Shown here: positions 35,516-55,448 of the stretch, piece by piece
Position numbering within the stretch: the stretch's first letter is position 1
How the letters are laid out: every line of letters begins with the position of its first letter
Assembly (NCBI GenBank): GCA_963799845.1
Contig: CAWCYI010000006.1
Span: forward strand, 864,001 to 928,000
Direction of reading: 5' to 3'
From: an uncultured Nitrososphaerota archaeon
GTDB lineage: Archaea; Thermoproteota; Nitrososphaeria; Nitrososphaerales; CADDZS01
DNA length: 64,000 nt
The notes under the pieces: generated by a model
The model's database searches: none
The model's input: the letters and a program-made list of their open reading frames with translations, nothing else
Told to the model about the DNA's origin: nothing
Made by a program: the position numbers and the translations under genes

Positions 35516-35540
35516 GGTGGGGGAGGTGGGATTTGAACCC
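35516..35540 (-). other. tRNA 3'-end-like fragment (T-loop plus acceptor strand), att-like
   Basis: Minus strand GGGTTCAAATCCCACCTCCCCCACC; no 5' tRNA half; abuts a palindromic-repeat core. Confidence 0.55.
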
Positions 35541-35558
35541 CAATTTACTGCATCTTCA
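35541..35558. repeat. Palindromic repeat family 1, half-site A
   Basis: CAATTTACT followed by GCATCTTCA; preceded by GGGATTTGAACCCC as in copy B. Confidence 0.7.
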
Positions 35559-35664
35559 ACTTGAGTCAATTCTTGAATAGACCATACAGTAGCTGAAAGT
35601 GATTATCGAAAGTGAACTAACATTATACTCTTCCCGAGCCAAATGCCTAATGGTAAATAACTGA

Positions 35665-36369
35665 ATGTCTAGAGAAACAGTTGATGCCCGAGGTCCAGTT
35701 TCACCGCCCGAGAACAGAAAAGGGTACAAGGGCGTCGCAATGGAAGGATTCATTGCAAGATGGTATACGAAAACCACTCGAAACAACACTGAGCAATACA
35801 AATCTTGGGCGAAGATTGCGAGTGGTCATATTTTTGAAAATGGTCATTTCCTTGAGCTTGCCCCTGGCCCCGGATATCTATCCATAGAAATAGCGAAACT
35901 AGGAAAGTATGAAATTGTTGGGTTGGACATAAGTAAGACATTTGTGAACATTGCTAGCGAGCATGCAAGAGCTGCTAATGTCAAGATAGAATTTCGACAG
36001 GGCGATGCCGCTTACACACCATTCCCAAGCGATACTTTTGATTTTGTCATCTGCACGTCAGCGTTCAAGAATTTTCCCGAGCCCGTAAGAGTAATTGACG
36101 AAATTTTCAGAGTCTTGAAGAGGGGTGGTGAAGCTTTGATAATAGATCTGCGCAAGGATGCTTCGAAAGCTGGAATCAACGATTATGTGGACAGCTTGAA
36201 ATTGAGCAGAATCAACTCGTTCTGGACTAGGTTTACTTTCAATCATATGTTACTAAGAAGCGCCTACACGAAACTCCAATTCCAAGATTTCGCTGCCAGA
36301 TCGCTCTTTGGAACATGCAAGACTGTGGATGAAGGAATAGGTCTTGAAGTATGGTTCCAAAAACCATGA
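35665..36369 (+). CDS. Class I SAM-dependent methyltransferase
   Basis: LELAPGPG, GLDIS, GDA..PF..DTFD and RVLKRGG. Confidence 0.88.
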   Translation: MSRETVDARGPVSPPENRKGYKGVAMEGFIARWYTKTTRNNTEQYKSWAKIASGHIFENGHFLELAPGPGYLSIEIAKLGKYEIVGLDISKTFVNIASEHARAANVKIEFRQGDAAYTPFPSDTFDFVICTSAFKNFPEPVRVIDEIFRVLKRGGEALIIDLRKDASKAGINDYVDSLKLSRINSFWTRFTFNHMLLRSAYTKLQFQDFAARSLFGTCKTVDEGIGLEVWFQKP

Positions 36370-36478
36370 TCAGTAAGTCAATGTCTCTTTCCTCTGGCTC
36401 CTACGTAACACGATCGCTGAGTATTTGAAGAGCGACCAACTATAACTGACAGCATCGAATCAAAAAATTGAACTGCTC

Positions 36479-36535
36479 TTTACTAGTAAATCCCGAGTGC
36501 GAGATTTGGGATTTGAACCCCAATTTACTAGTAAA
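36479..36535. repeat. Palindromic repeat family 1, unit B (two TTTACTAGTAAA cores)
   Basis: TTTACTAGTAAA-TCCCGAGTGCGAGATTTGGGATTTGAACCCCAA-TTTACTAGTAAA. Confidence 0.9.
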
Positions 36536-36622
36536 AATAATACGAGGGAAACAAGAAATGGACTTCACGCTCCATATCGGTTAGGAAGCAAAATTCCTCC
36601 TGGTAGGGACAAGGCGTACGTT

Positions 36623-36920
36623 TCAAATTCTTGGATCTGTTTCGGTTACCGTCGAGACGTTTCTCCCGAGCTGGAATAACTTTCGGGCAATCAGGATCCA
36701 CCAGATGAACATCAAAATCGTGGCACAACCGACGAGAATTGTTGACACGATGGATGTAGCTGACACAAAGACGGAGCCGATGTAATTGATCAAAAATAAT
36801 CCATTCGCGAGGATTCCCACCCAAGCGGTTGCTGTGCCGAAGAGCTTGCCTGTGCGCATAACTGCTGCGACGATCAGTCCCGCAACCGCCACGAAAATGA
36901 ACCCTGTACTCCAAAACAAG
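36623..36920 (-). pseudogene. C-terminal fragment of a membrane protein (DUF4386-like)
   Basis: Three TM helices ending WWILIARKLFQLG; upstream sequence switches to AT-rich unrelated DNA. Confidence 0.5.
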
Positions 36921-37346
36921 ATAAAAGGAAATAGAAAGAAAAAGAAATATTCTGTCATGATGAAAGATGGATTTGTGCATGAATTTGATTACATCGTCTT
37001 TAGTCTTGCTGAACTCAAGAAAGTAATTGAGAAAGCACCAAAAGGATCTGCGATTTTATGGAATGATACTACTCGATCGTCATTTAATAAAATTCCAGAT
37101 TTAGATCAAAGTGATTCTAAATTTCATTTTGTTCAATCAATATCATTATCTCATAATGATAAGGAAACATATCCTCAGAAATGGTGGAAGATTGAGTGAA
37201 ATCATTAATTTACCTGATCATGGAATCAAGAAATGGGCCTCTAGGCAGGGCTTGCTGGGCTTCCCAAACTTCATCGCTTTTCATCATCAATCTTTTCTAC
37301 GTAATCGTAGCGGAAGCCGATATGCTGGATTTAAATTATCGATTAT

Positions 37347-38886
37347 TTGGTGATAAATTCATTGGTTCGTAGCAATTTCGACAAAGGATTATCGCACCTG
37401 ATCATTTTATGTTCCGTTTTCATACTGGTCATCTTTTCAACTTCTTCGTATCAAACGTATAATTTTGCGTCTAGCAGGGTAGTATTTTCACCACCATCCA
37501 ATACTCCGATCAAACACATCGTCATCATCATGCAAGAGAATCATGCTTTCGACAACATGTTTGGTACTTACCCAGGATTGCCCGCTGGATACGGATTGAG
37601 CTTGTCAACCTGTATGCCAAACAGTTTGACGCAGAAAAAGAAAACACCATGCACCAAGCCTTGGAATGCGGACAGTAAGCAACTGACAATTCAGGGCCTT
37701 GATATTTCGCACACCAGATCTTCGGCGCTGAAAGCTTATGATGACGGAAAGATGAATGGCTTCATCGCAAACGATCCACTTGATTGTAAAAACTGTTCCA
37801 TGGCATACTTCACCAATGCGACGATTCCGGCGTACTGGGATTACGCTCAGTACTACACCCTGAACGATCTGATGATGTCAAGCGCACTGTCATTCAGTTT
37901 ACCGAATCATCTCTATGCGGTAGCAGCGCAAGCGGGTTTTGCAGGGACTTGTCTAAATGCATGTACCACAGAATACAACTTAACTTTTCCACAGATAGGC
38001 GAATCACTGACAAACGCCGGGGTTAGCTGGGGTTACTACCAGCAAAACTGGAATGACTTGAAGGACTGCACGGGGCCGATCAATGCGAGCGCGATCAGCT
38101 CTTATTACAATAAGGGCGGATATGATGGCTTCTGGTCCGGGCTCACCGATTTTACACAAGTCCAAACAACGGCGGTTGAATGTTCAAGTTTATTGAATCT
38201 CAAGGATCTGCAACATAATATCTCGACGGATACTCTACCAGCTGTGTCGTGGGTAGAGCCGCAACCCAAGAACAGTGATCATCCAAACCAGGGAACGTGG
38301 GATGCAGGGCAGAATTACGTCACTTCGATAATTAATTCAATCGAAGAAACTCGGCCTGGAATTCACGGTCATCTTCCTGACCTGGGATGATTGGGGCGGA
38401 TATTATGATAACATCACGCCGATTCAGCTTGACCCGGCTGGAGAGGGTTTCAGAGTACCATTTATCGCAATTTCGCCGTATTCAATTCAAGGCGCAATCG
38501 TTCAGGCTCCAGCGTACAACTATACTACAAAATTCACGAATATCCATCAGGAAGACTTTAGCTCACTTCTCTCAACAATAGAATACAACTGGAATCTGAC
38601 AGGAACATCCAGTCTGGGAAACCTCACTGACCGAGACGGGTACGAACCAAATCTTTTCTACATGCTAAATTTCAGTCAACCTCTCTTAAAGCCGCTGATA
38701 CTTGGAACAGTTCCCGGCGTAGTCTATCCCTACCAGACTTGCATAGTTAAAGGAGAATGCAGCATCGCTCCCTTCGCTACGAATACCATAACTCATCCTC
38801 AATTCAATATTCCATTGACTTCGCCTTACAATGAATCATCAACGGAGGCTCTAAGTTATTCTGGAGATGGAGACGCAGGAGATTGA
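37347..38886 (+). CDS. Secreted phosphoesterase / phospholipase C family protein (frameshift ~38360)
   Basis: IKHIVIIMQENHAFDNMFG, SLPNHLY and SDHP; the shifted frame gives LTWDDWGGYYD..GFRVP, in frame with 38662-38886. Confidence 0.85.
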
Positions 38887-39040
38887 AAGCCGAGGAATCG
38901 ACTGAAAGAGGTAAATGGCATCGATATCGTATTGTTTCTTACGTATCTCATAATTTTCAGCTGACAATGAGAGAAACAAGAATTGATGTTTGGCTGGTTG
39001 AAGGAGAAATGTTTGAAGTTTTAGCTGGAGAAAAACAAAT

Positions 39041-39549: not shown

Positions 39550-39755
39550 GATGTTGGCTCATCATTGTGCACGGTGGAGGACTTGCTTTCACGAACGCGC
39601 TGTTCGCGATTCTCGACGAAATCGTTACGAAGTTGCTTGAGCGATAATTTGTCACTCTAGAATATACTAAAATGGGACTCGCACCCTTGGGCCTCATCTT
39701 TTACTAGGTGACATGATCGACCGTATTAAAGGAACGTAAAGCCACAGCCAAGCAC

Positions 39756-40732
39756 ATGTACGCAGCAATAGACTTGCACCAAAAAACTGTACAGCTAGTA
39801 CTCAAGGATGAAGGGGGAAGGATAGAAAACGAGCTGAAGATCAACAAGGATGCAAAAAGCATACTCGAATTTCTTGATGGTACTGATGCTGAAATAGTCA
39901 TGGAGTCTGGTTACAACCACGAACACATCTATGATCTTCTAAAGGAGGAAGGATACGATGTCAAGGTAGCTCATCCATTGATGGTTAAGGCGATCGCATA
40001 CGCAAAAGTGAAAAATGACAAGGTAGACGCAAGGACACTTGCAGATCTACTGAGACTGGACATGATACCGGAGTGCTACATCCCCAGCCAAGAGATAAGA
40101 GAAGTAAGAGACCTGGCAAGGAGGAGACATTATTTCGTCTCGACAAGAACGATGTTCAAAAACAAAATCCATGCAGAGCTCAGCAGGAGATGGATTGATT
40201 ACAGTAAAGATCTCTTCACGCAGACTGGGATGGACCATCTAAAATCGCTTCATATCGCAGCGGTAAATGACTACCTCGACTCAATTCAGTTCCTCGATGA
40301 GAAGATACGAGAGCTTGACGGCCAAATCAAGGAAAAGCTCTTGGCGACAAATATGCGAAGCTCCTTGTGACGGTGCCAGGAATATCCTACTACGGTGCGC
40401 TGCTGATTTCAAGCGAGATTGCAGACATCAACAGATTCCCAGACCCAGAACACCTGTGCTCCTATGCAAAACTGGCACCCGGAACTCATCAATCGGGAGA
40501 GACACAATACCAGAAAGCAGATCGTAACAAGGGCAATCACATGCTCAACTGGATATTGATCCAGTGTGCTCACATACACGTCCTAAACTGCAACTCGTCG
40601 ATTACTGGGCATTACAACAGGATCAAGGAAACGAGGGGAAACAAGATCGCCATCGTCGCAGCAGCAAGAAAACTGACGTGCGCAATCTACATGATGCTGA
40701 AGGAAGAAAGAGCCTTCAGGCTGGACGGCTAA
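39756..40732 (+). CDS. IS110-family DEDD recombinase (frameshift in an A-run, ~40335)
   Basis: AAIDLH, VMES and KNDKVDA catalytic motifs; TVPGI, HQSG serine and AARKL. Restoring one A gives KALGDKYAKLLVTVPG. Confidence 0.9.
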
Positions 40733-40740
40733 AACCATAA

Positions 40741-40887
40741 ACTGGGCTCGAGAATTTACTGCATCTTCAGGATGCGTTTACTAGGATGAGCCAAAGGCAA
40801 TAAGCGAAAGCCACAATGCTCTTTTGGAGCGAATGGGAGTATGCTCGTCCAGCATGACAAAAGAGATATTAAGAAATGTAGCCCAGT
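40741..40887 (+). ncRNA. Candidate bridge/seek RNA in the IS110 right end
   Basis: Loop 1: GAATTTACT-[GCATC TTCAG GATGC]-G-TTTACTAG, closed by GGCTC/GAGCC. Loop 2: GCCACAAT-[GCTC TTTTG GAGC]-GAATGGGAG. Flanking ACTGGGCT/AGCCCAGT inverted repeat. Confidence 0.75.
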
Positions 40888-40898
40888 CGACATGGGAG

Positions 40899-40964
40899 TA
40901 AAATCTACTTGCGAAGAAAATCCGTGGCGGAATGTGGGACCCCCGCACGAATTTACTAGTAAAA
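40899..40964. repeat. Palindromic repeat family 1, unit C (first core split by IS110)
   Basis: ...AATGTGGGACCCCCGCAC-GAATTTACTAGTAAA (40949-40963). Confidence 0.9.
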
Positions 40965-41130
40965 GATCGCCTCAAAAAAATCCGAAATTCACAATGGTCA
41001 CAGTAGTCGTTCTAGCTCGCTCTGACTCTGGCCTAGAAGATACCCTTCATCTTTGTCCAATTCCAAGGCTGGTTACAAGAAGATTCGATTATTGAATACT
41101 AGAATCTTGGACGTTCTTTGGGAACAAGAA

Positions 41131-43143
41131 TCAGAGGATCTGCTGCGCCTGAGTTTGGCTGTGACCTCTGATCGCTCTATCAAAACCAATTTTGCTGAGA
41201 ACCACCAGCCACCGGGGATCCTGCCAGAGATTCTCAAATGCGAAATCGACCGCTACTGAAAATAGATATCCAGATCGTTCTTCGATCGCCCTGAAGAGCC
41301 ACTCGAACGCCCTGTCATTGTCCCCGGTATTGGCGTAGACTCCTGCAATGGCAATCGGAGATCCCTTTCCGTTTTCCCAAAGGTCTAGCAGCTTGGAAAG
41401 GATCCTGATTGCCTCCTCGTTTTTTCCAGCTTTTGAATACGCGTAGGCGAGATCATTTAGGTGGAAGGGGACGCCTTCACCAGCCAAATCAATCGCCTTC
41501 TTTATCTCGGAAATTCCTTGATCGAACTCACCGGTGCGCACGTGGCAACAGCCTAGCGCGTCGAATGCAAATGCTGAGTTAGGATCCAGATAAATGGCAT
41601 TCATCAAAAACGCCTTGGCCTCTTCGACGTGGCCATTGTAGAGATGGACGACCCCGGCGATTGTAAAGGTCTCGGCGGAAAGTGGGTCGAGATCTATTGC
41701 GCGTTTTGCTTCCCTTATCGCCTCATCGGATCTTCCGAATTGTCCTAAGAATAACGAAAACAGTGTGTGGACGTAGGAAAGACTCGGATTCAGTTGGATG
41801 GCTCGCTGGAATTCCAGTTCCGCTTCAGCGAATTTCCAATCCTGTAGATTCAACACTGTAGCAAGTGCGGCGTGGGCTTCAGCGATGGAGTCATCAATTT
41901 CCAATGCTCTTTGCGCGTAGGCTCTCGCCTTGGGGAGCACTCCTCTGGTCGGAATTATTTCCCATGCGCCTAGACCTGCGTAGCAATCGGCTATCGCGGC
42001 ATATGCCCGGGCGTAGCCCGGGTCCCTCTCTATCGCCTGCTCGAAAAGTTTGATTGCATCACCGTAAGATTTCTCCGTAACGTGGAGAGAATAAAATCGT
42101 CCGCGCAGATATAGCGAGTGCGCCTCAACACTCATCGTTCCCAAATTCTCGATTCTTTCCCTGTCCCTATCCAGAAGCTTCAGTTCAAGGGAGCTCGCGA
42201 CATGCTGGGCTATCTCGCTTTGTATCGAAAACACGTCTTCAAGTGTCCTGTCATAGACCTCAGACCAGACTTGGCGGTCGGCGGCGACGTCGATCAGCTG
42301 CACCGACGTGCGCACGCGGCTCCCTGCACGGCGAATACTGCCCTCTAAGATACTTCCTACTTTGAGTTCTTCGCCAATCTCAGTTAGGCGCTTGATTTGA
42401 CCCTTGTACCGCATCACAGATGTTCGAGATACAACGCTGAGCTGAGTAATTTTCGAAACCGAGGAAATTAGCTCCTCCGTTATCCCGTCCGCGAAGAATT
42501 CGCTTTCCGGATCAGTACTCACTTTAGCGAATGGTAGAATGGCGATTCTATTTTTATCGAGTCGGGGAGTTCCGCGTTTGCTCCAGACCGCCCTCTCCCA
42601 GGGGAGAAGGATCTTGTAGATCGTGATAGGGACATTGACATTTTTTAGCTGCGTAAACTCAAGTTGGACAATTGGAAGTCCGAGTTTGTTCCTTATCTGA
42701 TCAAAAACCTGACCTGAAATGCAGATTCCCTCAGGGTCTGCGAGAGGCTGGATCCGAGAAGTGATGTTAACAGTATCACCGAATACGTCACCCTCTCGAT
42801 GGACTACATCTCCATAGTGAATCCCTATCCGTAGTTTAGTTTTCCAAGGATCAGGAACAGACCTATTGGATTCGTGAAAGGACTTTTGAATTTCTACCGA
42901 GCACTTGCAAGCCTCCAGCACGTCTTCGAATTCGATTAGAAAAGAATCCCCGATGGTCTTGACTTCCCGCGCGTGGAATTTATGAATTAACTCTCGAACC
43001 TTTCGATTGTGCATTTCCAGAGATTCAAGAGCGCGCGATTCATCCAACTGCGTCAGCGAGGTGTATCCTACCAGATCAGTGAACATGATTGCTGAGAGGT
43101 TTCGCATATCGCAGTCGCGCCTGACAACCACTTGCTTGGCCAT
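41131..43143 (-). CDS. Class III adenylate/guanylate cyclase with TolB-like and TPR domains
   Basis: AIMFTDLVGYT, KTIGDS, DVFGDTVN..SRI, IAILPF, FADGITEE and multiple TPRs. Confidence 0.9.
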   Translation of the reverse strand: MAKQVVVRRDCDMRNLSAIMFTDLVGYTSLTQLDESRALESLEMHNRKVRELIHKFHAREVKTIGDSFLIEFEDVLEACKCSVEIQKSFHESNRSVPDPWKTKLRIGIHYGDVVHREGDVFGDTVNITSRIQPLADPEGICISGQVFDQIRNKLGLPIVQLEFTQLKNVNVPITIYKILLPWERAVWSKRGTPRLDKNRIAILPFAKVSTDPESEFFADGITEELISSVSKITQLSVVSRTSVMRYKGQIKRLTEIGEELKVGSILEGSIRRAGSRVRTSVQLIDVAADRQVWSEVYDRTLEDVFSIQSEIAQHVASSLELKLLDRDRERIENLGTMSVEAHSLYLRGRFYSLHVTEKSYGDAIKLFEQAIERDPGYARAYAAIADCYAGLGAWEIIPTRGVLPKARAYAQRALEIDDSIAEAHAALATVLNLQDWKFAEAELEFQRAIQLNPSLSYVHTLFSLFLGQFGRSDEAIREAKRAIDLDPLSAETFTIAGVVHLYNGHVEEAKAFLMNAIYLDPNSAFAFDALGCCHVRTGEFDQGISEIKKAIDLAGEGVPFHLNDLAYAYSKAGKNEEAIRILSKLLDLWENGKGSPIAIAGVYANTGDNDRAFEWLFRAIEERSGYLFSVAVDFAFENLWQDPRWLVVLSKIGFDRAIRGHSQTQAQQIL

Positions 43144-43200
43144 TGATGATTTTTGTAGGGAATAAATTGATTGGGGAAAAACGCTCGTCTTCTCACTCTT

Positions 43201-43311
43201 GTGGGGGCGACCCCCGCACGAATTTACTAGTAAAAATCCATCCCGGTGCGTAACTCCACAGTCGATGAGTTTAGGCTAGAAACGGGATTCGGACGCGAAT
43301 TTACTAGCAAA
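43201..43311. repeat. Palindromic repeat family 1, cores D and E
   Basis: ACCCCCGCAC-GAATTTACTAGTAAA (43220-43234), then ATCCCGGTGCG; GGGATTCGGACGC-GAATTTACTAGCAAA (43297-43311). Confidence 0.88.
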
Positions 43312-43827: not shown

Positions 43828-44463
43828 ATGGGTTTCTGAGAAATTCTGATTCCGCAAGACAAGATATTTTTTGAGTCGTTCACGCACCAGGCGAAGAATA
43901 TCCTTCTCGCCTCGCAAAAGCTGAATGCAGCGTTTGATACGAAAGAACTTTCCATTGATGAAGCGAGAAATGCGATTCGAGAGATCGAGCATGAAAGCGA
44001 CCAGCTCGTTCACTCCATTTATGATCGATTGAACGAGTCCTTTGTGACTCCGATTGACAGCGATGATATTCTGAAACTGTCGTCAGATTATGATACCATA
44101 GTCGATTTCATCTGGGCGACCATTAATCGGTACTATCTCTACAAGATTTCCTCACCCGACGAAACGATGAAGAGGTTCTCGCAAATAGTGGTAAAATGTG
44201 GTGAAGAGATCGTGAAGCTCACTTCAGCAATGACTACGAAATCAAAACTGAAACAACAGAATGGGAGTGCTGAAGAGATCGACAGGCTCGAGAACGAGGG
44301 AGACGAATTATTGAACGGCGCGGTCGCCAAGTTGTTCGATGAGAAAAAAGATGCGCTCGAGGTAATGAAACTGAAGGAGATTTACGAGCACCTTGAGGAA
44401 ATCACCGATAGGTACGAAGACGCTGCTCTACTCATAAGGGATATCGCCCTGCGGTATTCCTAA
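43828..44463 (+). pseudogene. DUF47 (PhoU-like) phosphate transport regulator with an in-frame TGA at codon 4
   Basis: ATG GGT TTC TGA GAA ATT CTG ATT CCG CAA GAC reads MGF*EILIPQDKIFF...IEHESD...FVTPID..D; in frame with ORF 44029-44463. Confidence 0.8.
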
Positions 44464-44572
44464 AATCTGATTTTACAAACTCCCATACAATCGTTGAAGA
44501 CGAACAGAGAATTTGGACCGCAAGCCTTGGCTATGCGAAATTTGTTTAATCTCCTCGTGGTAGGGTAAGAAA

Positions 44573-45609
44573 TTGGTGATCGATCAGACACTTCTCATTG
44601 TTGTTGGTCTCATCTTTCTCGCATTAGCATTCGATTTTGTGAACGGTTTTCATGATACTGCGAATTCCATTTCCACAGTCGTTTCAACAAGGGTACTTTC
44701 TCCCAGACTCGCAGTGTTGGTCGCGGCAACCTTCAATTTTGTCGCGTTTTTTGTGGTGGGAGCACCCGTCGCGAAATTCATAGGAGGAAGTATCATTTCT
44801 TCACCGTTGTTTGTCGGTAACCTGATTCTAGAGCTGGTATTTGCAGCGCTTATCGGAGGAATAACCTGGGACCTGATAACATGGTATCTAGGTCTTCCTT
44901 CCTCTTCTTCCCATGCGCTTATTGGCGGCTTGGTAGGTGCTGGCGTCGCTGCGGCTGGAACCAGCGTCGTAAAACTTGCTGGACTCGAAGTCGTTCTCGA
45001 ATACATGGTGCTTTCTCCCATCATCGGAATGATCGTGGCTTTTGGTATAATGATTGGACTGCTCAATCTTCTGAAAAAACTGGCTCCAGCCACCGTGAAC
45101 AAATATTTTCGTAGATTACAGATCGTTTCTTCAAGTGCAGTTTCATTCAGTCACGGATCCAATGACGCTCAGAAAACCATGGGAGTCATAACATTCCTTC
45201 TTATCGGGACAAATTACCTCTCTTCTGGCGGTAATGCGTCTACTGCTTTCCAAGTTCCAGTCTGGGTTGCTCTTGTATGTTTACAACAATTGCATTGGGC
45301 ACGTTTACAGGAGGTTGGAGAATCATAAGAACGATGGGCATGCGTATTACTCATCTCGATCCTATTCATGGCTTTGCTGCTGAGACGGCTTCAGCGGCTG
45401 TGATTCTTGGTGCGAGCTTTTCTGGGATTCCTGTCAGCACTACTCATGTTGTTTCGGGTTCGATTATGGGAGTTGGATCAACAAAGAGATTTTCGGCGGT
45501 TAGATGGGGGATAGCAAGGAGAATTGTTTGGGCGTGGATCATTACCATTCCAATGTCAGCTCTTGTAGCTGGAGGAGTCTTCATACTGACGAAATTTTTG
45601 GTGGGATAA
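44573..45609 (+). CDS. pit: PiT-family inorganic phosphate transporter (frameshift in a T-run, ~45281)
   Basis: NGFHDTANS, GLPSSSSHAL, HGSNDAQK, GGWRII.TMG and PVSTTH. Confidence 0.9.
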
Positions 45610-46119
45610 ATCAAACAGTTTTGTTAAATAGATAGTCGTGAAGGCCCTAAATCCCGCAGACTAGATGACTAGAGAAATCAAGATAGCTGAACCTGTCTGG
45701 GAATCAATCAAAGAAGTATCTGAACTGACTGGAATCAGGAAACAATCCCTGGCAAATGTAGCTTAGCAACTATATTTCTGAAATCAAGACAACCGACTTA
45801 GTCTCGTCAATTTCATCCAAAGGAATAATTTGACAGAAAAGAGAGCAAAGGATTTAGAAGAGATGACTTGGTAGGAATTCTGGCGTTTAAAGAAAATTCC
45901 TCTTTTTTTTGCGACCAATTCCTGCAATGATAATGGGTTCGAATAGTACGGGGTTGGACACGAATCCCAAAGCAGCACACTTCTAGCGAACAGTTCGCGA
46001 AAATATGCGGAGTGACTCAGAACTCGCAAAAGTTACGGTGAAACTATGGGATAAATCGGCTATCAATACGAACATGACTTCTGACTCACCTATGACCGAT
46101 CCAAAAAAAGTCGTCGCTG

Positions 46120-46133
46120 CAAAAGCTAAATAT
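46120..46133 (+). promoter_or_regulatory. Possible BRE/TATA promoter for the transporter leader
   Basis: CAAAAG-CTAAATAT about 25-30 nt before the structured segment starting ~46155. Confidence 0.35.
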
Positions 46134-46154
46134 GTCATACGTCATGCTTGTTTA

Positions 46155-46403
46155 GCTGACCCCTGTGAAGGAGATTGATCAACTACGTGGAGCTCTCGGT
46201 GCCGTAGTTGGCTTCACGATCTCTCTCGGTTTGCCTTGGCCGCAGTTCAGAACATGGGTTCCAAGAAGGGAGTACTTTTCCAAGACTTCTGGGATGGGAT
46301 CTTGGTTTCCCTGACAGTCGACTATTCAGGCCGGACTATGTGACAGATCTGCAAATACAAATCGCACTGCTTCGTGTGAGCAGTGATTCGAGGAAGCAGT
46401 GAC
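46155..46403 (+). ncRNA. Structured 5' leader, candidate cis-regulatory RNA
   Basis: Stems GTGAAG/CTTCAC, CAACTACG/CGTAGTTG, CCAAGA/TCTTGG, AGAAG/CTTCT and AGTC/GACT; CACTGCTTC can pair with AGCAGTG or with GAAGCAGTG next to the RBS. Confidence 0.5.
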
Positions 46404-47597
46404 ATGAAGGAATCGCAGTCTTCCGTCGTTGATCGGCTGAAGAACTTGGGTCCGGCCTGGCTTGTCATGATTGCAGATATCGACGTAGCATCCATTGTCA
46501 CTGGGTTGCAGGCAGGATCAGTATGGGGCAATAGGATGATCTTCATCATGCTTGCGCTCACCGTACCATTATTCTTCATCCAAGACGCAGCAGGTCGTCT
46601 GGGGATAGCTTCAGGCGTCGGACTAGGCGAAGCGATACGGAAGTACATGGGGAGAAGGATAGCTATACTTGCAGCCCTTCCAATGGGAATAAGCGACTTT
46701 CTTGAGTATGTCGCGGAATACGCGGGGATCGCCGTCGGCCTCTACCTTCTCAAACTTCCGGTGTTGCCGGGGCTACTCATAGTCTACGCTGTGCACACGA
46801 TTATAGTGATTGGACGGCAGTACAGGCAGGCGGAGATAATCCTGCTTCCACTCAGCTTCCTCGTCGTGGCAGGAATCGCACTTTCTGTGTTTGCATTCCA
46901 CTTCGATGTGAGGGAAGTATTTTACGTAGGTCTTTCACCATTCCAGCCTTACGGGAACCCCTCATTCGATTATCTCTTGGCTGCAAGCACCGGAGCGGTG
47001 GTCATGCCCTGGATGCTCTACTTCCACTCCGGCGCAGTCTCCAGGAAGGGAAAGAAACCCCAGGCAATGAAGGACGAGCGCATCGAAACGTTCCTTGGAG
47101 CGGTTGTGTCCGAAGTGCTCATGGCCGTGATTGTCATTGACGGATCGCATCTTCCCAGCGCAGGGAATTTCATTGGCATAACTGAGTTGTCTAACGCACT
47201 TTCCTTATTTGGTGAAAATGCTTCGCTCCTAATGGGAATAGGTTTCATCTCTGCGGGCTTTCTGGCGCTAGTTGTTGTTTCGCTGGGCTCGGCGTGGGGT
47301 GTGCTGGAAGCAATCAATGCAAAGTCCAGGAAATCATTCCTGATGGTCTATGCACTGGAGAGCGTCCCTGCTCTCTTGCTAGTCGCAATCTCCACGAGCT
47401 ACCTGCAACTGATACTCGACCTTATGGTGATCTACACCATAATCATTTTGCCCTCTCTCTTTTTCCTCGGCATGCTTGTCTCACGACGAGATGTAATGAA
47501 TGGGCATCAGCACGGTCCCTATTGGATGGGAATGTTTTGGATCATGTCTGTGCTGATTGCGATTGGAGGCTTGTTCGGGATTGCGTCGCTAATCTAA
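46404..47597 (+). CDS. NRAMP-related divalent metal transporter (non-canonical motifs; NRMT-like)
   Basis: LGPAWLVMIADIDVAS in place of DPGN, QD..GRLG..SG.GL and GAVVMPWMLYFHS; ~11 TM helices. Confidence 0.85.
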   Translation: MKESQSSVVDRLKNLGPAWLVMIADIDVASIVTGLQAGSVWGNRMIFIMLALTVPLFFIQDAAGRLGIASGVGLGEAIRKYMGRRIAILAALPMGISDFLEYVAEYAGIAVGLYLLKLPVLPGLLIVYAVHTIIVIGRQYRQAEIILLPLSFLVVAGIALSVFAFHFDVREVFYVGLSPFQPYGNPSFDYLLAASTGAVVMPWMLYFHSGAVSRKGKKPQAMKDERIETFLGAVVSEVLMAVIVIDGSHLPSAGNFIGITELSNALSLFGENASLLMGIGFISAGFLALVVVSLGSAWGVLEAINAKSRKSFLMVYALESVPALLLVAISTSYLQLILDLMVIYTIIILPSLFFLGMLVSRRDVMNGHQHGPYWMGMFWIMSVLIAIGGLFGIASLI

Positions 47598-47743
47598 TCT
47601 CGCGATTCACGTTAAGGCAGAAATGAAATGTGCAGAGGACGCTTGTAGGCCTTTGGAGTGTAAGTAAAGCAGTTCTCCGAGAGATTATCCAAATTGTTAA
47701 TTGAAAGAATGCTCCCGGCTTATCGAGAATTGTGGGTTTGGGC

Positions 47744-47784
47744 TTACTAGTAAATCCCGAGTGCGAAATGTGGGACCCCCGCAC
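47744..47784. repeat. Palindromic repeat family 1, unit F
   Basis: TTACTAGTAAA-TCCCGAGTGCGAAATGTGGGACCCCCGCAC links the B-type and C/D-type variants. Confidence 0.9.
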
Positions 47785-47803
47785 ATGGAAATAAGCACTC
47801 TTC

Positions 47804-49822
47804 TTATTTCTCTTCCGAGATCCAGGGGAAGGCCAGTGGAGTTTGGAGAGCTCCCTTCGTCTCCTCTGATAGGGATGCCAGTATCTCATCGTAGAGAGTT
47901 GCGATCTGCCTTGTGTTCCGCGTCTTTCCCGTGGCGCCCTTTGCACTATTGATTTTCGAGAGTTTGCTGATGATGTGTTGGGGGGTGCTCGACCCGATAT
48001 GGTTGAACTTGGGCTGTCTGTTTACGAGAAGATCGCCCCCTTTCGCGTCGATTCCAATCGCTTCGATTCCGTCAACCCTGATCGGGAGCTTCACGTGAGG
48101 TAAAATCTCGGCTGCTAGGTGTGTCACGAGGAGAACTAGACTACTCCCTGTTGCGATGTGATTCATTATCGATGCGACTATCCTGCCCGCGGCACCAGGT
48201 TCGGTCAATGCCTCGAATTCATCGATCAAGATCAGTTTTGCCTGCTTATCTGCGAAAACTGGAATCAGCGCCTTCAGCGCTTGCTCCAAGCTGCCCACTC
48301 GCTTCGTTGTTCGTCTTCTAAACAGAAATATTGGAACGGGGTTGACTTCAGCATCTTCCGCAGGAACTGGTAACCCCAAGAGTGAAAGAATGTGAATCGT
48401 CGCAACAGTGGTCAGCAGTGTCGTCTTCCCTCCGCTGTTTGCCCCCGTTAACATTACGACGTTACGGGGCCGTGCGTCCAGTTTAATCGAGATCGTTTTT
48501 CCTACGCTGTAACTGATGGGAATAACCTTGCTCTCGTTGCCCTCCATTTGCTCGTGCGATAGCAAGATGTTTTGTCCGTTTACAAATCCAATCCCGTCCG
48601 TCCCGATAATGGGGACAGACAAGGAATATTTTCTCGTGACGATCGCAACTGCAAGCATCTGATCAAATAGGACTACCTTCTCTACAGCCGCGGATACTGC
48701 CGCCCAATATTTCTTTAGGGCGCTCTCGGTTTTCAAAACTTTTCCCTCTAGTTCTGAAAAGAGCCTAGTGCGCCAGGTTTCAATCACGCTCCTGACGGAT
48801 CGGGAGTTTAGCTCTATCGGGATGGTTAGGTTATCAAGTACCGCTTTCCTGAATTTGTTTTCCTCATCCAGGTTCATTTTCAAGCTGGCCGCGATCTCGC
48901 TAACCTGGCTCTCAATGATGCTTTTTGCGGCATATTGATCCGCTCCTCTTCCACCTCTTCGGAATCTCTCGTTGATCGCTAGTTCTACGTCAGAGATTAT
49001 GGCATTAGCGTCTGGTACTTCGAGCCTGGCAAGTCCGTCCAAGAGGCGAATGACTTCTCTTAACGCAATTAGGTCGATGCCTCCGAGCAGAGATGTTATC
49101 GAGTTCGAATTCCCGAACTCAGCCAGGATAGTTAGGACGATATCAATCGCTTTTCGACGAGAGACAAAATAACTGATCGTGTCCGAGTAATTAGAAGGAC
49201 CAGAAGTAGATCTACTAGTTTTCCTGCTTGCAGATTTCTCGGATAGTGACGATGCCTTTGAAGCCAGCTGTATGCCCGAGAGCAGAGATTTCAGCCGATC
49301 GAGAAGACCCAGAGCCTCAGCTTCTTCCAGCATGCTCTTGCCGAGTTTCCAATTGTCCAGTCTTTTCCGAAGCAGGTCCCTCGGGAGCATCTGCCTCTGG
49401 TCAAGTAGGAGTATTCCGTCGCGCGCTACGGCAGAAGAAGCTTCGCTAGCGAAAATTGTCAGTATCTCCTTCGCAAGCCTCCGGGAGTCAGGAGTCCTCA
49501 ACATTTTTCGGACCGTCTGGCCCGATGAGGATTTCTCATGGAATGCTTTCATTGCCCGAAGAGCGTGGTTCCTCGAGGTCTTTGAGTAAGCGCTTAAGCC
49601 TTCAACGTCGCTGAGCTTTATTCTCTCTATAATATCCTGAATTTTTTCTTCGCTGAAGACCGATACATCAATCCTCAGATCTTTTCCGAGACTGTTTTGA
49701 AGTTCGTTTTTGCTCAGAGAACCTTTCTCTACGCTGATAGTAGCCAAAGCCAGCTTTAAACGCATTGAAACCTCGCATAAAGAAGCTTCGTTTAGAAAAA
49801 CTCTAAGAGTGTGAAAAATCAT
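47804..49822 (-). CDS. Archaeal MutS-related ATPase (domain V recognisable; no mismatch-binding domain seen)
   Basis: LTGANSGGKTT, LGLPVPA, ILIDEFE.LTEPGAA and LVTHL; likely start ATG ~49764. Confidence 0.8.
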   Translation of the reverse strand: MIFHTLRVFLNEASLCEVSMRLKLALATISVEKGSLSKNELQNSLGKDLRIDVSVFSEEKIQDIIERIKLSDVEGLSAYSKTSRNHALRAMKAFHEKSSSGQTVRKMLRTPDSRRLAKEILTIFASEASSAVARDGILLLDQRQMLPRDLLRKRLDNWKLGKSMLEEAEALGLLDRLKSLLSGIQLASKASSLSEKSASRKTSRSTSGPSNYSDTISYFVSRRKAIDIVLTILAEFGNSNSITSLLGGIDLIALREVIRLLDGLARLEVPDANAIISDVELAINERFRRGGRGADQYAAKSIIESQVSEIAASLKMNLDEENKFRKAVLDNLTIPIELNSRSVRSVIETWRTRLFSELEGKVLKTESALKKYWAAVSAAVEKVVLFDQMLAVAIVTRKYSLSVPIIGTDGIGFVNGQNILLSHEQMEGNESKVIPISYSVGKTISIKLDARPRNVVMLTGANSGGKTTLLTTVATIHILSLLGLPVPAEDAEVNPVPIFLFRRRTTKRVGSLEQALKALIPVFADKQAKLILIDEFEALTEPGAAGRIVASIMNHIATGSSLVLLVTHLAAEILPHVKLPIRVDGIEAIGIDAKGGDLLVNRQPKFNHIGSSTPQHIISKLSKINSAKGATGKTRNTRQIATLYDEILASLSEETKGALQTPLAFPWISEEK

Positions 49823-51825: not shown

Positions 51826-52133
51826 GCGAGAGAATATCCTTTGTTATACCAAAGCAAATGAAGAAATCGCTAAAGGAGCTACAGAAGCTGACTGGAGAGG
51901 ATCAATCAACACTTTTGAGAAAACTGGTGAATAAGGGCCTGAGCGAGACCAAGATGGACATCGCCGTGGATCAGTATGAAAAAGAAAAATCATCTCTGGA
52001 GCAATCTTCGGCCATTGCGGGCGTGTCTCTCTGGAAATTTCTCGATGAGCTTCACCGAAGAAACGTAGGGCTAAAATATTCTATCGCCGACGCTGAATCT
52101 GAAATCAACGAGGGGTTGAAGAGAAGGCATTAA
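51822..52133 (+). CDS. UPF0175-family antitoxin-like protein
   Basis: RHH-like N-terminus, then AVDQY....SL...AIAGVSLWKF; TTG start overlaps the PIN stop. Confidence 0.75.
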   Translation: MSERISFVIPKQMKKSLKELQKLTGEDQSTLLRKLVNKGLSETKMDIAVDQYEKEKSSLEQSSAIAGVSLWKFLDELHRRNVGLKYSIADAESEINEGLKRRH

Positions 52134-52502
52134 TTTTTTTTAAACGTATCCTCACTGGCCACGTAAAATCCATACCGATGGTAAGAATCGTTTTCTCGCA
52201 CTTCTGGGACTTGCCCTTGCGCGGTTTCTTGAATCGACGCACGAAACGACTGTAACGAGCCTGGCTAAAGAGCGATGGATGAAGGCAGGTTTCTTTAGGC
52301 GCGGGTCTTGGTTCCTCCCATGTCCCAACGAATAATCATGACTCAACGCGCCACGGGAGGCTCCCAATGTATGTCCAAAATAGTCAAGTCGTCGGAAACT
52401 GCGTGACAAACTGCTCTGCTGTGAGAAAGTCCCCCCTTTGGGAGTGGTCGAGTCTGCAGATCAGTGAAATTGATACATAATATATCTTATATTATGTAAA
52501 TC

Positions 52503-52711
52503 GTGACAACCGTAGCCGTAAGCAATCAACGCTGGAGAAGCTGAAGCGTATCATGAAACAGGAAGGGGCGAGCAGTTTGGATCAGACAATAAACGATCTG
52601 ATAGAGAAAAGCGAGGGTGTCCCAAAAACCATGTTTGGGGTTGACCGAGAAACGAAACTGAAACTAACCAGAAAGGAGTACGAAGAATTCCAGCGATCTC
52701 ATTTCTCTTAA
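52503..52711 (+). pseudogene. VapB-type antitoxin, frameshifted; paralog of 33492
   Basis: VTTVAVS / TLEKLKRIM....SLDQTINDLIEK.EGVPKTMFG; no toxin follows. Confidence 0.65.
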
Positions 52712-52795
52712 ACGGAGGCGCGCCCTGCATTTACCAGATTGTGCAAGAAAGCCCATGTTTTAAAACATGGGATGAATTGCGCTTGAGAGAGTCGG

Positions 52796-54232
52796 ATGTC
52801 TCTCAAGAATGACGCCATACGCGGCTCGCTCAAGAAAACTAAGGAGAGACGGAGGACTCAAACCTGTAAGCAATACGAGCTGAAAATAGATACTTCCCAT
52901 CTCAGCGACAAGACACACAAACATCTCGACAGATTATTTCTCGAAGCCAAGTGGTTCTACAATCATGTGCTTGCAAACGGAAACATATTCGAGGCCGACT
53001 ACAGGTTGGGCGCGGTCCGTGTCAAGGCAAAGAATGGTTTCGAAACAAGAGAAATCCGATGCCTATCATCCCAGATGAAACAGGAACTCATCGACAGGAT
53101 GAGAGACAACATCAGATCACTTTCCAGGCTGAAGAAGAGCGGACACAAAGTTGGTGCGCTCAAATTCAAAAGTGAAATCTGTTCCATCCCACTCAAGCAG
53201 CAAGGGATGACGTACAAGATCATCGATAAGCACTACGTCCACATTCAGGGAATCAAGCAGGGACTCAAAACAAGAGGGATTTTTCAGCTTCCTGCGAGTG
53301 CCGATCTTGCATCCGCTCTTCTGGTCCGAAAGCATGGAGACTACTATCTACATGTGACGACATACCAGACTAAAGTAGTTCCGAAGCATCGGGAAGAAGA
53401 ACAGCCATCAAAAAGCGTAGGCATAGACTTGGGAATCAAAAACCAGCTCACGCTATCAAGCGGGATCAGAATCAACTACGAAGTGCCAATAACAGACCAT
53501 ATGAAGAAGCTGTGCAGGAAGCTAAGCAGAAAGAAATACCACAGCCACAACTGGTGGAAGGCAAAAACGAAACTGGATAAAGCCTATGACGAGACGACGA
53601 GCGTCAAAAAGGATATCCAGAACAAGCTTGTGCGCGGACTCACAAAACAGTTCACAACGATTTGCTATCAGGATGATACAATCAAAGCCTGGCAGCGGAT
53701 CTGGGGAAGAAGAATCTTGAACACCTCGCTCGGCGGAATAATCAGTGCGCTTGAAAAGAAGGCACAAACGCCGAGGAAAGTGGATAGCTTCATTCCCACG
53801 ACCCAGAAATGCTCGCGTTGCAACGCAAGGAATCAGGTCACTCTTGCGGATCGAATCTATGAATGCACATACTGTGGTCTCGTAATGGACAGAGACTTGA
53901 ACTCCGCGATAAACATCGAAAAGGAAGGAGGAGTACCTATGGTGCATAGGGAATTAACGCCTGCGGACACTCTTGCCTATACTCTCTTGGAATACTTCAA
54001 CAGCATTCCACACATCAGAGCAAGCATGGTGGTTGAAACAGGAAGCCCTGCTATGGTCGTGGAGAAGCCCACGATCTTCACAGTAGTTGCGAATCAAGTA
54101 TGCTTTCCTTTCATGTCAAATGACTTGTTCATGATTAGACCGATGAGAAGGAGTTTCATTTGTATTACTTCCACCGATTCGTTCGGATGGAGCAGCTCTT
54201 GGTTGGCATTGTACATGACCCACGAATTGTAG
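52796..54232 (+). CDS. tnpB: TnpB RNA-guided endonuclease-family protein; native last codons displaced by the nested IS
   Basis: VGIDLG, CSRC/CTYC zinc finger and DRDLNSAINI; native end EKPTIFSRG* has its stop at 55269-55271. Confidence 0.9.
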   Translation: MSLKNDAIRGSLKKTKERRRTQTCKQYELKIDTSHLSDKTHKHLDRLFLEAKWFYNHVLANGNIFEADYRLGAVRVKAKNGFETREIRCLSSQMKQELIDRMRDNIRSLSRLKKSGHKVGALKFKSEICSIPLKQQGMTYKIIDKHYVHIQGIKQGLKTRGIFQLPASADLASALLVRKHGDYYLHVTTYQTKVVPKHREEEQPSKSVGIDLGIKNQLTLSSGIRINYEVPITDHMKKLCRKLSRKKYHSHNWWKAKTKLDKAYDETTSVKKDIQNKLVRGLTKQFTTICYQDDTIKAWQRIWGRRILNTSLGGIISALEKKAQTPRKVDSFIPTTQKCSRCNARNQVTLADRIYECTYCGLVMDRDLNSAINIEKEGGVPMVHRELTPADTLAYTLLEYFNSIPHIRASMVVETGSPAMVVEKPTIFTVVANQVCFPFMSNDLFMIRPMRRSFICITSTDSFGWSSSWLALYMTHEL

Positions 54233-55256
54233 ACAAGACATGCAAAGAGATAGTAGAACAATCTTACCACGTAGTTCCTTGATGTTGTTTTTATCAGGAA
54301 TTGATTTGACATTCGGTAGCTTGTCTCTATGCCCCAGCGGTTCTTGAATAGCCTTAGGATTGTTTCAGCTTTGTAGGGAAGATTTGTTGCAAACAGGTAC
54401 TTGTAATCCTTTGTCTTGTCATATGCCACTACAACTTCAAACGAGGCTTGTTCAGATTCCCTCCTCCTGTGTCCGCTAGTAGTGTACGTGAACCTCCTAC
54501 CCTGCCAGAGCCTCATTTTCTTTGTCTTGTAGGTTGGAGCCATTCGCACGATGTACTTGAGTCCAGATTCCTCAAGAAATCTGAGTAGGTTTGTGTGAAA
54601 GAATCCGCCGTCAAAAACCAGATAGCGAATTCTTATTTTCAGCTCTTCTTGCAGTTTTCGGACAATTTGTGTGGTAGACGAGACAAGTTCCGAGCCTGAT
54701 GCTAATCCTGTAACAGCTACGATCAGTCTTTCTCCATCTGCTAGAACAGAAGCTGTAAGGTACTTGAATGAATAATTGCTTCCGTCCCTGTGCATGGTTC
54801 CAATGACCATCGGTGTTTCTTCATGATTACCGTAGTACATGACATCATGCAGATCCAAAGCGACAGGGACTGGTAGGCGTAATTTTCTTCTTTTTCTAAG
54901 ATCCTTCACATTCCCGTCTATCAAATTATCGAAGATTTGTTTGACTCTCGCTTCTCTTTGTGATTTAATGTACGAAAGAAGAGTTTCTGCAGTCGGTGAT
55001 TCGCCTAGAGATTTCGAAACACCTTCAGCAAATCCATTTACCAAGCTCGCCGAGATGAGCAGGTTTAGGTGTTCATTCTTGGAATAAATCGCTCTCTCCT
55101 TCAGCTCATATGTCAGCAGTCCTGAGATGTTTTTCTTTACGAATTCATACAGCTTTCTCGAATTGAACCTCAATTGGAACGTCGGAAACAAGCCCTAAGG
55201 CGGGCTGGCCATAATAATTGCGGCCGGAAATCGCCTAGATTCGTTCGCATCTACTG
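54081..55256 (-). mobile_element. ISH3-like (IS4 superfamily) insertion sequence
   Basis: Terminal IRs CAGTAGTTGCGAA / TTCGCATCTACTG (12 of 13 match); TTCA duplicated at 54077-54080 and 55257-55260. Confidence 0.85.
54094..55191 (-). CDS. DDE transposase (ISH3/IS4-like)
   Basis: VALDLH..YYG, VFDGGF, RWGIETSYR and R.FY..FA...YN.W. Confidence 0.88.
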   Translation of the reverse strand: MFPTFQLRFNSRKLYEFVKKNISGLLTYELKERAIYSKNEHLNLLISASLVNGFAEGVSKSLGESPTAETLLSYIKSQREARVKQIFDNLIDGNVKDLRKRRKLRLPVPVALDLHDVMYYGNHEETPMVIGTMHRDGSNYSFKYLTASVLADGERLIVAVTGLASGSELVSSTTQIVRKLQEELKIRIRYLVFDGGFFHTNLLRFLEESGLKYIVRMAPTYKTKKMRLWQGRRFTYTTSGHRRRESEQASFEVVVAYDKTKDYKYLFATNLPYKAETILRLFKNRWGIETSYRMSNQFLIKTTSRNYVVRLFYYLFACLVYNSWVMYNANQELLHPNESVEVIQMKLLLIGLIMNKSFDMKGKHT

Positions 55257-55420
55257 TTCAGTCGTGGGTAGTTCACTTTCGCAACCGTATACTTCGCCAT
55301 TAAGCGAATCATATGCGGTCGCAAATGGAGTCGCGGTAATACTAGTTTGGTTGAGGTTTCCCGGAACGAGTTTATCATTCTGAAGTAGTAGAGTGCTGCA
55401 ATCGTCCAAGCATTAAACGA

Positions 55421-55448
55421 GGGATTCGCACTCGAATTTACTGATAAA
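55421..55448. repeat. Palindromic repeat family 1, degenerate copy G
   Basis: GGGATTCGCACTC-GAATTTACTGATAAA; resembles copy E and the reverse complement of B/F. Confidence 0.7.

Follow-up and report, generated by a model that had tools for sequence, protein, structure and literature searches.

Co-oriented palindromic sites with tRNA-like arms lie between accessory genes of a Nitrososphaerales archaeon and are occupied by an IS110 element

What do the short palindromes do that stand between unrelated genes in the genome of an uncultured soil archaeon of the Nitrososphaerales? They came to notice in a 64-kb stretch (C6:864001-928000, hereafter the window) of G000, a 4.60-Mb, nine-contig assembly that is 87% complete; C2, C4, C6, C7 and C8 are among its contigs, and its gene map consists of the longest open reading frames (ORFs). 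An earlier note on this DNA had rightly called it archaeal and had proposed an undescribed family of elements resembling attC sites or repetitive extragenic palindromes (REPs), possibly the recombination sites of an integron-like array that is shuffled, or parasitized, by an IS110 recombinase. We find a repeat family common to two genera, whose sites are very probably parasitized by an IS110 element, the best-supported single claim of this analysis. We favour, tentatively, the reading that these are att-like recombination sites delimiting gene modules. The tRNA 3'-end origin of the site arms, the co-orientation of the sites and the sharing of the family between two genera go beyond what the earlier note had described.

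The palindrome TTTACTAGTAAA is strongly enriched. It occurs exactly at 36479, 36524, 40952 and 43223 of the window and with one mismatch at 43300 and 47743, six matches against 0.11 expected (0 of 100 shuffles gave six), and the 10-mer TTACTAGTAA has seven window matches with at most one mismatch (0.98 expected). Throughout G000 there are 40 exact copies of TTTACTAGTAAA against 0.12 expected and 58 of the exact 10-mer core against 1.33 expected; nine control palindromes have 0-2 genome copies each. A single one of the 58 cores falls inside an ORF of at least 150 aa, though such ORFs make up 73% of the genome (P = 7e-32), and every copy in the window lies outside Pfam-supported genes, its overlaps being limited to short unsupported ORFs. 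The genome scan for clustering that had been suggested placed 51 of the 58 cores within 10 kb of a neighbour (random mean 12.6, maximum 26 in 1000 trials). A profile built from 17 aligned units returned 98 hits at E<=10, and 57 non-overlapping oriented hits at E<=1e-3, which we call strong, in about ten clusters; one copy on C8 is a duplicate of a C7 region at 99.8% identity. The window contains part of a 48-kb array (C6:899.5-947.2 kb), and motif and profile searches found no copy in its first 35.5 kb. The claims that the copies are real, enriched and intergenic, and that the first 35 kb hold no full copy, are therefore upheld.

An elementary site of about 40 bp consists of an arm derived from a tRNA 3' end, exactly 12 variable bases and the palindrome. 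The arm comprises T-loop, T-stem and acceptor strand as the reverse complement (...TGCGAGAT-GTGGGA), and three types run toward the core: GTGGGA-CCCCCGCACGAA, GTGGGA-TTTGAACCCCAA and ACGGGA-TTCGCGCACGAA. The spacing GGGA-N12-core is exact in 29 of 38 pairs, the 12-mers comprising 16 distinct sequences in three unrelated classes. In one arm type 18 nt, CGAATCCCGTACCTCGCA, are identical to the 3' end of tRNA-Gly(CCC) (C7:113855-113947), and a subtype found at C4:1371957 and C6:947191 continues from there into TGAT, as does the tRNA-Gly gene after its last base C. For the remaining arms the resemblance is to TTCAAATCCCAC joined to the acceptor strand of tRNAs for Leu and Ser. Because the T-stem 5' strand is not retained, no arm is a functional tRNA, and ARAGORN calls none there. 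In its default mode this program found no tRNA in the window; with introns allowed it called 35 genome-wide, nearly all intron-bearing and several with implausibly long introns, and the tRNA set of G000 is probably under-called. The palindrome is missing downstream of 29 predicted tRNAs, which rules it out as a general tRNA-gene terminator motif.

Sites take three forms. Some are single; others are units in which 33 (or about 50) nt separate two cores, the 57-bp hairpin unit having its two palindromes at a distance of 45 bp. The third form is a composite some 150 bp long, ordered core, 64-nt module, core, arm and core, which has imperfect inverted repeats at its termini and was found in at least nine locations. 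Where good arms flank both sides, the site extends to an 11+6+11 palindrome, CGCACGAATTT-ACTAGT-AAATTCGTGCG, and runs of T and A flank the palindrome. Folded as single-stranded DNA, four of four units form imperfect hairpins (-9.7 to -12.4 kcal/mol, z -4.0 to -5.4), in agreement with the hairpin described earlier. An asymmetric internal loop or inner stem is confined to the GGGACCCCCGCAC type, the other main unit type having no inner stem. The 57-bp composite that had been written out corresponds to the family consensus but is not contiguous in the window, where it combines the left part of copy F with the right part of copies C and D. Mosaicism of shared sub-blocks is evident throughout, identical arm types being joined to differing partners across the core. 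Run on the 17 units, RNAalifold gave no conserved RNA structure (-1.5 kcal/mol). An Rfam search that covered 23 kb from the window and 60 kb from arrays elsewhere matched group II introns only and nothing in the units, and we found no description of the palindrome family in the literature on Nitrososphaerales miniature inverted-repeat transposable elements (MITEs) and Nitrososphaera IS110 elements and repeats. Within these searches the family is undescribed, as had been supposed.

The sites are co-oriented. Adjacent sites at most 20 kb apart lie on the same strand in 34 of 37 pairs (P = 6e-8), and strong hits run on one strand in the window (4/4), at C6:940-947 kb (6/6), on C7 (7/7) and at C4:927-935 kb (5/5). 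All strong sites of the window are on the plus strand (4/4), as are three weaker copies, A and G included. Orientation switches at three places, C4:1952-1957 kb, C6:947-961 kb and C6:1591-1593 kb. The weak GC skew follows the strand of the genes; its sign changes at the C6 switch (~950 kb) and not at the C4 switch. Replication-linked polarity was rejected, since the skew is weak and matches one of these two switches.

The genes between the sites, by contrast, face both directions. Sites occupy gaps of every kind (convergent, tandem and divergent), as a rule with a single gene or operon between them, and fill nearly every gap between accessory genes or operons within arrays; the distance to the next start codon varies from 17 to ~240 bp. 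The modules so delimited are single genes or operons of 0.7-5 kb, some holding 2-5 genes, and those checked contain no viral or plasmid genes. Their genes are of accessory kinds, and diverged paralogues of them turn up in several arrays: methyltransferases, SDRs, ABC-2 pairs, cyclase-TPR, DUF1801, RibD_C, glyoxalase, cupin, TetR, hemerythrin, nitrile hydratase and MFS. The units are 80-95% alike, compared with ~70% for the adjoining paralogous genes.

The same architecture is found in relatives. The exact 12-mer is rare in 40 of them, genomes of the same genus having 0-3 copies and those of a second genus at most 6. Of 151 genomes of the order, G000 included, 23 gave a unit hit with a covariance model; among them are 9 of the 12 others in the family of G000 (5/6 and 4/5 in the two main genera), the best E value in the other genus being 8.9e-19. 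Weaker arm-plus-core matches occur in seven other families of the order, and the model found no unit in the incomplete metagenome-assembled genomes (MAGs) of three large families (0/24, 0/23, 0/11). The relatives being incomplete MAGs, a missed site there does not equal an absence. No finding is underpinned by G001, an unpublished genome. On six relatives' contigs the sites are on the same strand (4/4, 3/3, 2/2, 2/2, 5/5 and 2/2, several hits being weak) and separate gene kinds like those in G000.

Module order varies between species, with sites at or beside the points of divergence. In one relative (G002:C28) a nitrile hydratase operon, units and RibD_C follow one another, and the G000 orthologues (62-75% aa) lie 1.1 Mb apart at C4:247.9-249.8 kb and C4:1374.2 kb. 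In another (G003:C136) a block that matches C4:1491.8-1493.8 kb in gene order (83-88% aa) has beside it two modules flanked by units, which G000 does not have at that place, and the genes of a third contig (G004:C64) map to five scattered places in G000. Upstream of nitrile hydratase the site abuts the same conserved promoter-proximal sequence in both species, but inverted. A metagenome contig, L063, is 92% identical to the hemerythrin gene of the window and diverges ~10 nt past the stop codon, at a unit that G000 does not have. Eight short metagenome contigs show the same unit architecture, with no linked recombinase visible on them. Contigs from four public soil or wetland runs terminate at units; unit-unit joints in public contigs have sides of 26-39 nt, which amounts to repeat ambiguity, and so they say nothing on rearrangement. 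For the blocks of the window itself, five same-genus MAGs gave scattered matches on short contigs and no site-level comparison.

The IS110 element lies precisely in the palindrome, which it splits as TTTACT-AG / IS / AG-TAAA with AG on both sides. Its non-coding ends are unequal (5' ~48 bp, 3' ~164 bp) and carry a subterminal inverted repeat, CATGATCGAC / GTCGACATG. According to the available text of PMC11208160, the IS1111 group has a short 5' end and its bridge RNA in the right (3') end; the features by which that text defines the group, a DEDD recombinase, a long 3' end, subterminal repeats and a 2-nt core, are all present here. Further copies lie at C4:1956884-1957756 (100% identical) and C6:961378-962583 (85%), and both end against a unit. 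In another Nitrososphaerales MAG, IS110 copies of 83-89% identity have the same junction, ...CCCCAATTTACTAG/GTGACATG and ...GGGCTTACTAG/GTGACATG, and G002:C28 begins with an IS end that directly adjoins a unit. The element thus sits at the palindrome centre in at least three genomes; distant IS110 relatives (60-70% aa) occupy other targets. Inside the C4 copy there is a group II intron (RF02003, RF00029; RVT_1 and GIIM ORF at L001:10595-11791), L001:9959-11883 corresponding to C4:1954959-1956883.

The predicted 3' RNA of the element carries guide-like copies of both palindrome half-sites, AAUUUACU and GUUUACUAG, and its sequence predicts programmed targeting at the central AG. In the predicted fold of this end the GCAUC/GAUGC hairpin between them, enclosed by a GGCUC/GAGCC stem, forms and both half-site copies are unpaired (z -1.8, the fold alone being weak evidence). 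A second RNA loop matches the element's own ends (AAUGGGAG) and not the palindrome, so that the RNA appears set up for joining the IS to a palindrome, not one palindrome to another. Parasitism is supported on these grounds, and the proposed shuffling of the array by IS110 is not; we infer that IS110 exploits the sites as a parasite and does not drive them. Units derived from IS110 ends were considered and rejected, as there is no similarity beyond a 17-nt stretch in copy A. That stretch, AATTTACTGCATCTTCA, is identical between copy A (35539-35555) and the guide region of the IS110 3' end (40753-40769), and may be a remnant of a related IS or a captured piece of target sequence.

How, then, might the modules have come to lie between the sites? 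We favour, at somewhat less than even confidence, att-like sites at which gene modules would have been inserted and reshuffled by a trans-acting site-specific recombinase encoded outside the arrays. Co-orientation would follow because the site itself is oriented, and modules could enter in either direction because the core is symmetric; the 11+6+11 layout is typical of the core sites of tyrosine recombinases. An att-like site that is oriented but has a symmetric core would account jointly for the co-orientation, for genes facing both ways, for the mosaic arms and for a module order that differs from species to species. There is precedent for the setting: in the available text of PMC6563490, 39 of 68 integrated elements of Thaumarchaeota use tRNA 3' regions, with short att sites and known tandem arrays. 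Co-orientation, species-specific order and arm mosaics are likewise suggestive of the integron-like array proposed in the earlier note, though not of a true integron, given the lack of IntI and of integron boxes and the mixed genes.

Several observations weigh against this reading. No tyrosine recombinase was found in the window or near any array, and a search of the genome found no resolvase. The PF00589 search of the 87%-complete genome gave three weak, unlinked hits of ~36.7, 26.5 and 23 bits (C4:2115564, C7:200823 and C2:35074; 36.7, 25.0 and 22.8 bits on ORFs) and no clear XerA; Thaumarchaea are reported to be without xerA in the available text of PMC2958812. The two Y1_Tnp genes (C4:750843 and C6:729242) belong to IS200/IS605 copies of 2.8 kb with ends bearing no relation to the units, so the suggestion of a recombinase, REP-associated tyrosine transposase (RAYT) or TnpA linked to the clusters failed. 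Some of the 37 oriented pairs sit within one composite and are not independent, many sites keep one good arm only, and no intact tRNA gene anchors the arrays or stands at their ends. At 33-64 bp, the segments between cores are too short ever to have existed as circles. Paralogous ABC-2 operons are accompanied by units of differing type in opposite orientation with unalignable spacers, which independent insertion would also explain; co-duplication of units with these operons was rejected on the same spacers and orientations. The nitrile hydratase block of G000 has no downstream site, contrary to a neat cassette picture. Breakpoints between related genomes had been expected exactly at the cores, and order indeed differs at or next to sites; an ABC-2 operon common to two genera (81% nt), however, ends at genes and not at a site. 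No excision, inversion or empty-site product was seen. Finally, the relatives' genomes are fragmented MAGs, 58-96% complete, and G000 itself is 87% complete. The shared ABC-2 pair (G011:C53:3465-5182 and C6:1593763-1595476) is 81% identical in DNA and 84-88% in protein, the other genes of its contig 61-69% in protein, and these identities make lateral transfer between the genera possible.

The main rival is a selfish or neutral mosaic repeat like REPs and bacterial interspersed mosaic elements (BIMEs), spread or homogenized in non-essential regions by a trans-acting enzyme or by gene conversion and serving as portable homology; synteny breaks would then stem from ordinary homologous recombination between copies, and IS110 would use an abundant, conserved and safe target, much as IS110-family elements use bacterial REPs. 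The strictly intergenic position, the hairpins, the mosaic modules in several combinations and the ~150-bp composites with their imperfect terminal inverted repeats all fit such a repeat, as do units more alike than the paralogous genes beside them and the differing type and orientation of units beside paralogous ABC-2 operons; REPs are, moreover, cited as IS targets in the available text of PMC11208160. We nevertheless consider it rather unlikely. Co-orientation in 34 of 37 pairs and on all six relatives' contigs is unexpected for MITEs or REP doublets, only ~57 copies exist and these are confined to ~10 clusters, and the same pairing of gene and site is kept in different species, as it is upstream of nitrile hydratase. 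There is no target-site duplication apart from the core itself and no RAYT, both Y1_Tnp genes being IS200/IS605 TnpA. Nor do the repeats fall into known classes of this kind. They are extragenic like REPs and REPINs, but clustered and co-oriented rather than dispersed inverted doublets; they have the terminal palindromes of MITEs, but a non-random orientation and no IS with these ends; and an origin as palindrome-associated transposable elements (PATEs) or from IS200/IS605 was rejected because the IS ends are unrelated. A protein-bound signal of the host, whether an operator of an accessory regulon, a bidirectional terminator or a polar, insulator or chromosome-architecture site, is improbable. 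A perfect 12-bp palindrome (up to 16-28 bp) suits a dimeric binder, T and A runs flank it, arm-to-core spacing is fixed, the family is conserved across two genera, and the C6 switch near 950 kb coincides with a sign change in GC skew and gene-strand bias. Yet the C4 switch has no such coincidence, start-codon distances vary widely, convergent gaps are occupied, as are divergent ones that need no terminator, the units lack conserved RNA structure, and tRNA-derived arms and mosaicism would be left unexplained.

Closer to the favoured att-like sites is the possibility that they are inactive scars, the decayed attL and attR of tandem tRNA-targeting elements (proviruses, plasmids or casposon-like elements) that have lost their integrases, the palindrome being part of the element-side arm. 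Arms made of tRNA 3' fragments, one subtype continuing into TGAT as in the tRNA-Gly gene, agree with this, tandem accretion at one att site gives co-orientation, and thaumarchaeal elements favour tRNA 3' ends and form arrays (PMC6563490, available text). Sites at C4:236-241 kb and C6:1747-1748 kb have casposon genes (pPolB, Cas1) and a fragment of Cas1 in their vicinity, at distances of 0.9-4 kb. The repeats are direct and the 18-nt tRNA-Gly identity is present, but there is no integrase, no element backbone and no intact tRNA at the ends of the arrays. The modules, moreover, are single genes or operons or a mere 33-64 bp, without viral or plasmid genes; in viral contigs the site was not found, apart from one chance-like match within coding sequence; and a perfect palindrome in 40 copies with retained 12-nt spacing argues for constraint or recent activity. 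We regard scars as unlikely, though less so than a protein-bound signal. A genuine integron, or a cluster of attC sites lacking integron-integrases (CALIN), with attC recombined by IntI, is very improbable. The 57-bp length of the hairpin with its asymmetric internal loop and the co-oriented arrays of small accessory genes are reminiscent of one, and archaeal integrons, mostly CALINs, are known (PMC9668308, available text). However, no IntI-type gene was found in the 87%-complete genome or beside the arrays, the three weak PF00589 hits lying near none of them; in the 17-unit alignment the units end in TTTACTAGTAAA rather than R'' (RYYYAAC) / R' (GTTRRRY); genes face both directions in multi-gene modules; and of the two main unit types only one has the inner stem. 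The archaeal-integron paper describes canonical attC sites, and the available main text does not mention Nitrososphaeria (PMC9668308).

Cas1 genes stand 0.9-4 kb from a few sites, in casposon-like or defence contexts. A casposon-like pair of protein-primed PolB (pPolB) and Cas1 lies at L046:5133-9844 (C4:199.1-203.8 kb) and a second Cas1 beside TIR and SLATT genes at L047:10433-11419 (C4:236.4-237.4 kb); a fragment of Cas1 interrupted by a TGA codon (C6:1748317-1748640) is 0.9 kb away from a unit.

The copies and genes of the window are collected in Table 1. Pfam confirmed the gene blocks that had been named between the copies, the MutS-V-like match falling below the cut-off. Copies A and G, counted earlier among the sites, are real but degenerate, with a half or mutated core.

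Table 1. Palindromic copies, IS110 features and neighbouring genes, in window positions (C6 coordinates where indicated).
Feature	Position	Strand	Description
Copy A	35516..35556	+	Arm of GGGATTTGAACCCC type and left half-core AATTTACT, then GCATCTTCA; degenerate; reverse complement resembles tRNA 3' end (TTCAAATCCCACCTCCCCCACC); profile match C6:899521-899549, E 0.014
Methyltransferase gene	35665-36369		Pfam
Copy B	36479..36535	+	Complete 57-bp unit, the sole one in the window, GGGATTTGAACCCC type: exact core, 33-nt body with tRNA-like arm, exact core; E 8.9e-15; fold -9.7 kcal/mol, z -5.05
PF04185 phosphoesterase gene	37347-38390		Pfam
Palindrome left half, split by IS110	39700..39707	+	TTTACT + AG; repeat common to other IS copies begins 39700/39701
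IS1111-type IS110	39708..40896	+	ORF 39756-40370 + 40367-40732; PF01548 + PF02371
Bridge-RNA-like target-binding loop	40746..40795	+	GGCUC, AAUUUACU, hairpin GCAUC-UUCAG-GAUGC, GUUUACUAG, GAGCC
Palindrome right half and copy C	40897..40963	+	AG + TAAA, long-form body, arm GTGGGACCCCCGCACGAA, exact core 40952-40963; profile match C6:904909-904963, E 6e-13
Cyclase-TPR (adenylate cyclase) gene	41131-43143		Pfam
Copy D	43189..43234	+	Arm of GACCCCCGCACGAA type and exact core 43223-43234; E 1.2e-7
Copy E	43235..43311	+	64-nt spacer module ending in arm ACGGGATTCGGACGCGAA, and one-mismatch core TTTACTAGCAAA
PhoU_div, PHO4 and Nramp genes	44029-47597		Pfam
Copy F	47743..47786	+	GGGTTTGGGC, core CTTACTAGTAAA, unit body; ends ...CGCACATGG without second core; E 2.4e-12
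Weak MutS-V-like ATPase gene	47804-49822		29.4 bits, under 30.2 cut-off
TnpB gene	52796-54232		Pfam
Copy G	55412..55449	+	Arm GAGGGATTCGCACTCGAA and degenerate core TTTACTGATAAA; profile match C6:919414-919442, E 0.15, weak

The composite to which copy E belongs recurs at C4:1963066-1963215 and eight further places, and the truncated subtype of copy F at C6:1035235 and C6:1746663. A short repeat of GGGTTT type (GGGTTTGGGATTGGGC and variants) abuts one side of the palindrome in ~7 copies and in another MAG; it is seen at window 47733-47743, C7:11970, C6:1021899 and in L027. The phosphoesterase and IS110 ORFs are split, probably by assembly indels rather than as pseudogenes, because contigs from a public soil run carry one additional base at each place (G at 38349, depth 5.1 of 5.1; A at 40332, 14.8 of 14.8). 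Pfam also supports a DDE transposase in the window. A 1.18-kb DDE_Tnp_1 insertion sequence with ~9 related genome copies occupies 54080-55257, at the 3' end of the TnpB element, and one public contig joins 54077 to 55257 without it, the shorter side of the joint being 22 nt. An IS630-like element (HTH and DDE_3, 28-bp terminal inverted repeats) at 57223-58352 has at least 11 further copies of 99.9-100% identity, one of which interrupts a repeat module at C6:966.8-968.0 kb. Long, internally repetitive genes with 150-180-bp periods, NHL-repeat and adhesin-like, occupy 11400-16700 and 55500-59400; the segments 12229-12528 and 15121-15420 are duplicates of 92% identity.

How do the sites compare with known systems? 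With attC/CALIN arrays they share imperfect hairpins of ~57 bp, conserved ends with a variable middle, co-orientation, a place between small accessory genes and, often, the lack of a linked integrase. Both are also targets of dedicated IS1111-family elements, those of bacterial attC sites forming the IS1111-attC group. Unlike attC/CALIN arrays, they have no IntI or R/L boxes, both gene orientations, own promoters, multi-gene modules, ends that are perfect palindromes, tRNA-derived arms and an archaeal host. The pdif (XerC/D) modules of Acinetobacter plasmids and the integrative mobile elements exploiting Xer recombination (IMEX) at dif are likewise bracketed by short 11+6+11 sites, with a host-encoded, unlinked recombinase, and their modules too occur in differing contexts. 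Orientation alternates among pdif sites, however, whereas the palindromic sites are co-oriented and mostly have one good arm, in a lineage reported to be without xerA (PMC2958812, available text). Bacterial REPs and BIMEs, the targets of IS621 and others, resemble them as intergenic palindromic mosaics and programmed targets of bridge-RNA IS110 elements; they differ in that the present family has no RAYT, tens rather than hundreds of copies, clustering, co-orientation and tRNA 3'-end arms. With the thaumarchaeal att sites in the available text of Krupovic et al. 2019 (PMC6563490) they have in common the tRNA 3'-end junction, the shortness and the tandem arrays. They depart from these in having no integrase or backbone, single-gene modules, ~57 sites per genome, an invariant palindrome at fixed spacing and no intact end tRNA.

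The sites explain why short-read assemblies break at these points. The IS110 element is a natural archaeal IS1111-type element with a readable guide-target pair, useful for working out the rules of bridge-RNA targeting, and even as a REP-like repeat the family would be the first found for this order in the literature searched. It is conceivable, if doubtful, that the Nitrososphaerales of this taxonomic family run a chromosomal module-exchange system analogous to integrons and pdif but differently built. Such a system would have an oriented palindromic att site 12 nt from a mimic of the tRNA acceptor and T-arm, admit modules in either direction, and depend on an unlinked recombinase, perhaps of tyrosine type and replacing XerA; it would contribute to the expansion of the genome to 4.6 Mb and support a bridge-RNA IS110 parasite of its own, a counterpart of the IS1111-attC relationship in bacteria. 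If these are recombination sites, they would represent a second, independently built archaeal cassette platform and a mechanism by which soil Thaumarchaeota gain and shuffle accessory genes.

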